Source of the DNA: a virus
Taxonomy: Duplodnaviria; Heunggongvirae; Uroviricota; Caudoviricetes
Direction: 5' to 3' (one strand)
Length of the DNA: 10,684 bases
IMG/VR virus record: IMGVR_UViG_2671180643_000008
The notes beneath the pieces are model-generated. The model searched no databases and had not been told where the DNA came from. It worked only from the letters and a program-made list of their open reading frames with translations. Position 1 is the stretch's first letter. Each line of letters begins with the position of its first letter. The position numbers were made by a program, and so were the translations under genes. Shown piece by piece: positions 10,405 to 10,684 of this stretch.

Positions 10405-10599
10405 ATGGCGATAAAAGGGCTTGATCAGGCGATTGAAAATCTGAGCCGGGTTCGTAAAAACGCCATTCCGTCGGCTTCAGCAATGGCTATTAACCGCGTG
10501 GCTACAACGGCGATTAATCAGTCTTCATCACAGGTTGCCCGGGAGACCAGGGTGAGCCGGAAACTGGTAAAGGAACGGTCCAGTGTAGTGGCACACTAA
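10405..10599 (+). pseudogene. Z: Tail completion protein gpZ, 5' fragment only (64 of about 190 codons); truncated by an insertion
   Basis: [58 protein letters not shown] matches the lambda gpZ N-terminus as recalled. After codon KER (ending at 10578) similarity ends, and all three forward frames hit stops by 10612. Confidence 0.6.
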
Positions 10600-10684
10600 A
10601 TTTGGCCACCTGATGAAAGGTGATATTCTCACCACAACACAAAACAGGTGACTTAATGAACAAGAAAACCAAACGAACCTTCAC
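10584..10684 (+). mobile_element. Probable left end of an IS3-family insertion sequence (terminal inverted repeat plus start of orfA), continuing beyond the window
   Basis: The sequence TGTAGTGGCACACTAAATTTGGCCACCTGA... starts with TG, has an internal GTGGC/GCCAC dyad, and resembles my recollection of IS911-type left ends. AGGTGA SD, then ATG 10656 encoding MNKKTKRTF..., typical of IS3-family OrfA N-termini (compare IS911 MKKRNFSAEFK). It begins exactly where Z homology stops. Only about 100 bp are visible. Confidence 0.4.

Follow-up and report, generated by a model that had tools for sequence, protein, structure and literature searches.

The tail completion gene Z of a lambda-like prophage in Escherichia coli runs into unrelated DNA partway through its coding sequence, and the available sequence ends shortly behind this point. 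The locus therefore raises the questions of what this DNA is, whether the join is a real feature of the genome, and whether the rest of Z follows on the far side. In lambda, gpZ is the tail completion protein and is found in virions (PMC10721106). An earlier note, made by reading the sequence without database searches, had proposed that Z is truncated by an insertion of the IS3 family. The results described below support an IS3-family insertion that interrupts Z in a decaying lambdoid prophage.

Source of the sequence and gene content

The window, meaning the whole stretch of DNA that was analysed (10,684 bp), is the entire draft contig CYBI01000078.1 of the E. coli assembly GCA_001283725.1. 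Because the window is a complete draft contig, its right end was set by the assembly and has no biological meaning. Gene calling gave a lambda-type late region, in the order lysis gene, PerC-like gene, Nu1, A (in two pieces), W, portal, S49 protease, D-like, E-like, FI, FII-like and Z. In the comparison with 5,426 complete E. coli genomes, at least 80% of the window was covered by 1,126 genomes, and the best complete-genome matches showed 98.2 to 98.7% identity over positions 1 to 10583.

The gene for the large terminase subunit (gpA) contains six G residues at 3205 to 3210, versus five in an intact relative (NZ_CP027325.1, hereafter L005), and the resulting frameshift yields products of 94 and 528 aa. 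The terminase frameshift that had been put forward as a second lesion is thus present at the level of the sequence. The sixth G could be a genuine frameshift or a homopolymer error of the draft assembly.

The break in gene Z

Every top alignment of the window to the complete E. coli genomes ended at 10583. When positions 10380 to 10684 were used as the query, many complete E. coli genomes were 100% identical over 10380 to 10583, after which the identity stopped. The intact Z gene of L005 (576 nt, encoding 191 aa) reads ...CGG TCC AG|A CTG AAA CGG at the break, i.e., ...TCCAG|ACTGAAACGG, and in the window the foreign DNA begins at T10584. The truncation of Z claimed by the earlier note was therefore correct, but its position was not: the note had let the homology end after codon 58 (10578), 5 nt too soon, whereas the true break lies between 10583 and 10584, so that codon 59 and two further nucleotides belong to Z as well. 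The note had also reported stop codons in all three frames behind the break, and these were found (TAG at 10586, TAA at 10597 in the frame of Z, and TGA at 10611).

The identity of the gene is supported by its location after the FII-like Phage_attach gene, as in the lambda gene order, and by a match of the 64-aa open reading frame (ORF) to the Pfam family PF06763, Minor_tail_Z (63.4 bits; cutoff, 23.9), in which residues 3 to 61 aligned with HMM positions 1 to 59 of 190. The first 59 residues thus resemble lambda gpZ, from which the gene in the window differs in that only 59 of 191 aa, about 31% of the protein, are encoded before the break. A full-length Z protein has about 191 aa, as in the intact relative, but the ORF in the window, which the TAA at 10597 to 10599 closes, ends at 64 aa. 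Under accession CTT95115.1 ("minor tail protein [Escherichia coli]"), the chimeric product is on record from a single contig. The coordinates of the features at the locus are collected in Table 1.

Table 1. Features at the junction between gene Z and the inserted element
Feature	Positions	Strand	Basis
5' 179 nt of tail completion gene Z (codons 1 to 59 and 2 nt of codon 60)	10405..10583	+	179/179 nt identical to Z of L005
Chimeric 64-aa ORF: Z residues 1 to 59, then SVVAH (junction and IS end)	10405..10599	+	Translation
CAG target triplet adjoining the IS	10581..10583	.	Expected left copy of the 3-bp duplication if the insertion is simple
Left end of the IS3-family element (positions 1 to 101 of 1258), cut by the contig end	10584..10684	+	100% identical to L002 3004-3104 and many other copies
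Left terminal inverted repeat (IRL), TGTAGTGG ... TTGGCCAC	10584..10609	+	Matches the reverse-complemented right end at 20/26 positions
Shine-Dalgarno-like AGGTGA, 4 nt upstream of the orfA ATG	10646..10651	+	Read from the sequence
First 9 codons and 2 nt of transposase orfA (MNKKTKRTF...)	10656..10684	+	ATG is IS position 73 and opens orfA in full copies

The left end of the element

All 101 bases from 10584 to 10684 matched the left end of a 1258-bp IS3-family element exactly, as the earlier reading of this DNA as an IS3-family left end had anticipated. The element lies in the same orientation as Z and starts with the TG dinucleotide (10584-10585) that had been pointed out as an IS terminus. 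The matches between the IRL and the right end form solid blocks at IS positions 1 to 8 and 19 to 26 (TGTAGTGG and TTGGCCAC).

The dyad that had been noticed in this region is present in the sequence, with GTGGC at 10588 to 10592 and GCCAC at 10605 to 10609. A role as a functional hairpin was considered and rejected, since the predicted RNA fold of 10584 to 10684 was no better than chance (z = -0.67), with 52 of 200 shuffled sequences folding equally well or better. The dyad is more plausibly a component of the inverted repeat: it belongs to its two conserved blocks, and these are found again at the opposite end of the element. Nothing resembling a promoter or terminator consensus turned up in 10380 to 10684.

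The ATG at 10656, which had been proposed together with its Shine-Dalgarno sequence as the start of an OrfA beginning with MNKKTKRTF, is the codon that opens the 103-aa orfA of the full copies. It is also the start chosen by PGAP in an isolate from a dog (L004, orfA start at 5261). Two other records (L001, start at 4881, and the plasmid L002, start at 3040) instead place the start at an in-frame GTG, IS position 37, equivalent to 10620 in the window. The annotation of the transposase start hence varies for the same element; the ATG at IS position 73, with AGGTGA, has the better Shine-Dalgarno sequence of the two.

Anatomy and family of the full copies

Full copies of the element were examined in L002 (a plasmid), L004 (the dog isolate) and 29 prophage contigs from IMG/VR. 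Another accession with a full copy is NZ_CP031920.1 (complement of 33610 to 34867). The full element is 1258 bp long and is bounded by TGTAGTGG...CCACTACA, which form inverted repeats of the TG...CA type. In the full copies, orfA starts at IS position 73 and has 103 codons, and the slippery site A-AAA-AAG (AAAAAAG) is found at position 333, where a -1 shift gives a fused OrfAB of 392 aa. This OrfAB matched the Pfam families PF00665 (rve, 94.5 bits), PF01527 (HTH_Tnp_1, 57.3 bits) and PF13276 (HTH_21, 35.2 bits) and scored 360.6 bits against the NCBIfam model NF033516 (transpos_IS3), for which the cutoff is 160. PGAP labels the copies "IS3 family transposase" with a "programmed frameshift."

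The hallmarks of the IS3 family, namely, TG...CA repeats, a frameshifted orfA/orfB pair, rve and helix-turn-helix domains with a match to the family HMM, and a target duplication of 3 to 4 bp, were all found; the gene pair, the domains and the duplication were scored on full or other copies, and the window itself shows codons 1 to 9 of orfA. These results show that the element behind the break in Z is a genuine IS3-family insertion sequence. The copies were 99.9 to 100% identical to one another, indicating recent activity of the element.

The element is related to IS911 and ISEc31. With IS911 and other IS3-family members, it shares a length of about 1.25 kb, bipartite TG...CA repeats, an orfA (HTH) and orfB (rve/DDE) joined by a -1 frameshift at A-AAA-AAG, and the formation of 3- to 4-bp target duplications. 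It is nevertheless distinct from IS911, as its ends and its protein sequences are not those of IS911. In its sequence and its C-terminal motif ...ILKKATALLMSDSLN, OrfA presumably resembles the OrfA of IS911. The right end (L002 4250-4261) carries TTGACC 6 bp from its tip, and in a circle junction (right inverted repeat, 3 bp, IRL), this TTGACC would stand 17 bp upstream of the CACACT of the left end (L002 3004-3030), a spacing like that described for the junction promoter of IS911.

For ISEc31, the link is a copy located within gpU of E. coli O55:H7 DEC5D, which PGAP annotates as "IS3-like element ISEc31 family transposase." This copy is likewise 1258 bp long, has the same termini and is flanked by a 3-bp CAG duplication, but it is 92.7% identical (1,166 of 1,258 nt) to the variant in the window. 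Isoforms of an insertion sequence are by usual convention above about 95% identical in nucleotide sequence. Records that contain the variant of the window are annotated as "IS3 family transposase" only.

Abundance and target sites

The left end of the element was found at 4,563 places in 2,088 of the 5,426 complete E. coli genomes (median, 2 places per genome; maximum, 16), and it was matched in 442 plasmid records. Target duplications were scored at 21 distinct sites for which both flanks were available, in a sample made up of two sets of viral-contig loci and of annotated genomes. Perfect 3-bp repeats were present at 13 sites, a 4-bp repeat at one (GATG, L044) and no repeat at seven, indicating that 14 of the 21 copies are simple insertions and that the other seven are rearranged.

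Since CAG adjoins the element in the window, in L001 and in L002, a preference for this triplet was considered. It was rejected, because other sites had GCC, TTT, CGC, GCT, AGG or AAG, and further repeats to the contrary were TCG, GTG, AAT, GAT and GATG. As the repeats vary from site to site, the CAG in the window is not evidence of sequence specificity.

Several copies differ from a complete element between two copies of its target. The right flank of L031 is the reverse complement of the left flank of L018, which corresponds to an inversion between copies, and L019, L029 and L033 have a common right flank with differing left flanks. The flanks in both groups are evidence of prophage rearrangement mediated by the element. 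Truncated copies also occur elsewhere, with L015 ending at position 1081 and L020 at position 985 of the element. In another copy (L017, 2982-4204), about 1.2 kb of other DNA separates positions 343 and 344, presumably as the result of a nested insertion.

Other insertions in Z and U

In the dog isolate E. coli 19KM2326N (L004, NZ_CP151038.1), a Qin-like prophage carries an identical element (1,258 of 1,258 nt) in Z in the same orientation. The insertion follows ...GGGCCA (AAGGAAAGGGCCA), 1 bp away from where the homologous site of the window, ...GGTCCAG (AAGGAACGGTCCAG), would place it. Over the 179 nt, identity between the two Z alleles is only 74%, indicating that the two insertions are independent. 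No target duplication was present in L004 (5011-6560), where the right end of the element is followed directly by a tail-fibre gene whose 5' part, encoding the N-terminus, is missing. This arrangement means that the insertion in L004 was followed by a deletion or by recombination between copies, and the tail genes in between have been lost. The truncated Z product of this isolate (...KERAM, 60 aa) was present on eight contigs. In eight other Z backgrounds, fusions ending in ...KERSSVVAH, ...KERASVVAH or ...KERSM were not on record.

Gene U, encoding the tail terminator, contains two independent insertions 29 bp apart (L001 4845-6134; L006, L017, L028 and L030). They consist of two variants of the element, which are 92.7% identical to each other and stand in opposite orientations. 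Taken with the two insertions in Z, they hint at a possible regional clustering in Z and U.

The presence of the identical element in the same orientation at sites 1 bp apart in two Z alleles, together with the two insertions in U within 29 bp, raises the idea that codons 59/60 of Z are a preferred target. Such a preference is doubtful and at most possible, because the insertion in L004 was found with a query that could detect insertions at that site alone and because no target consensus is evident. If it were true, it would suggest that the element selects its targets by some DNA feature local to lambdoid tail genes and that prophages are inactivated recurrently in this way.

Many draft contigs break off inside Z, in the stretch that contains the insertion site, and encode partial products of 57 to 72 aa. 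The suggestion that these "partial" proteins conceal further IS insertions was rejected, as the contigs just end in ordinary Z sequence. Draft E. coli contigs that end inside Z number in the hundreds (proteins P0004 to P0013 and P0165 to P0178). Their ends suggest a mosaic boundary near codons 59 to 72, close to the IS site; the assembly graphs may branch in Z because co-resident lambdoid prophages share the sequence on one side. Two further proteins (P0023 and P0035) are annotated fusions of the N-terminus of Nu1, the small terminase subunit, with the C-terminal part of Z, which imply prophages with an in-frame deletion from Nu1 to the middle of Z.

Searches for the two junctions

The left junction between Z and the element as it occurs in the window was absent from the 5,426 complete E. 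coli genomes. At least 80% of the junction query was covered by only two complete-genome records, both of which represent different events. The left junction was also not found in the species-representative genomes, the metagenomes or the phage collection, and among the viral contigs none of the 29 loci bearing the IRL had a Z flank. The right junction predicted for a simple insertion (TTGACCACTACA-CAG-ACTGAAACGG) was absent from the complete E. coli and species-representative genomes, the metagenomes and the viral contigs.

If a partner contig had been annotated by closed-end gene calling, a 103-aa remnant of Z that starts at the first internal ATG (MLGHRPNS...) would probably have been called on it. 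The remnant predicted from the closest allele was absent from the protein collection, in which four other allelic versions of it exist. Three short representatives of such remnants (MLGRRP...) were rejected as products of IS insertion, since the prophage genes on their contigs are broken into many short ORFs.

Discussion

The best explanation of the locus is that a 1258-bp IS3-family element would have transposed into gene Z of a lambda-like E. coli prophage between 10583 and 10584. By analogy with the IS3-family members that have been studied, OrfAB would be made by -1 ribosomal frameshifting at A-AAA-AAG and would copy the element out as a circle with abutting ends. The circle would then be pasted into the target by a 3-bp staggered cut, here at CAG (10581 to 10583). 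The IS3-family pathway is one of copy-out-paste-in via circles (bioRxiv 10.1101/2023.06.07.543989). The contig stops 101 bp into the element because the element is a multi-copy repeat, through which short-read assemblers are unable to extend. Six other draft contigs likewise end 54 to 189 bp into the element (L009, L010, L011, L022, L024 and L034). The remainder of the element and the rest of Z would then follow behind the contig end. The event is probably young, because no other isolate in the searchable collections shares the junction and because the 101 bp that can be seen equal the consensus of the other copies.

That the junction between Z and the element is real is almost certain. The assembly is a short-read draft and the junction lies near a contig end, as would suit an assembly or library chimera with Z intact in the organism, but the foreign DNA sets in precisely at the first base of the terminal inverted repeat (TG), as expected of transposition but not of a random chimera. 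Moreover, no k-mer is common to Z and the element at the junction: intact Z continues with ACTGAAACGG after CCAG, whereas the element begins with TGTAGTGG. Since the join is on the first base of the repeat and no shared sequence was there to mislead a de Bruijn assembler, a chimera is extremely improbable, and in the finished genome of an independent strain (L004), Z is interrupted by the same element at a site 1 bp away. It is also very unlikely, if somewhat less so, that the window shows a mere fragment of the element, whether a left end standing alone or a copy with an internal truncation or interruption. Truncated and interrupted copies do exist (L015, L020 and L017), but most copies were of full length, and a contig that breaks off after 101 bp of the element is what assemblers produce at a shared repeat, as in the six other drafts. 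A truncated copy would in any case disrupt Z equally.

The alternative with the greatest weight leaves the insertion in Z in place and changes what lies to its right. A deletion adjacent to the element, or recombination or inversion between copies, may have removed or displaced the 3' part of Z and perhaps further tail genes, in which case the window would show one edge of a larger rearrangement. The one-third of the copies with both flanks that lack a target duplication, the inversion between L018 and L031, and the common right flank of L019, L029 and L033 are consistent with such an event. So is the sole other copy associated with Z, that of L004, which continues on its right into a truncated tail-fibre gene and not into Z. 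The prophage already has a lesion in the terminase gene, which would imply weak selection for intactness. On the other hand, two-thirds of the comparable copies are simple insertions, and a junction that is unique to the isolate in the searchable collections, with 101 visible bp equal to the consensus, suggests a young event that has had little time for rearrangement. With a base rate of 14 simple to 7 rearranged copies, a rearranged right side is possible but clearly the less probable outcome, and a simple and complete insertion with the rest of Z directly behind it is the probable one. The best explanation as a whole, including a simple and complete insertion, is accordingly held with fair confidence. 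A simple insertion predicts that the element would end in ...TTGACCACTACA followed by CAGACTGAAACGG. The sequence across the right end would thus read ...GTGGCCAATATTACTTGACCACTACA-CAG-ACTGAAACGGGCGACGG..., with U, V, G and T behind it.

The consequences for the prophage can be estimated from what remains of the genes. The 64-aa Z stump retains 59 of 191 residues and is very unlikely to function without the C-terminal two-thirds of the protein, and for this reason the prophage would be unable to complete infectious tails. A 1.26-kb insert in the late operon may in addition lower the expression of the downstream tail genes. The extra G in the gene for the large terminase subunit would be a second inactivating lesion.

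The value of the finding lies mainly in annotation and in judging whether the prophage can produce particles. The collapsed repeat explains the end of the contig and shows where the adjoining contig should be sought when the genome is to be closed. What is known of IS3-family elements and of gpZ is unchanged by the finding. Both the element and the phenomenon, the erosion of lambdoid prophages in E. coli by insertion sequences, are already known, and the locus is a case of ordinary prophage decay: with Z interrupted and the terminase gene frameshifted, the prophage is very likely defective and non-transmissible.
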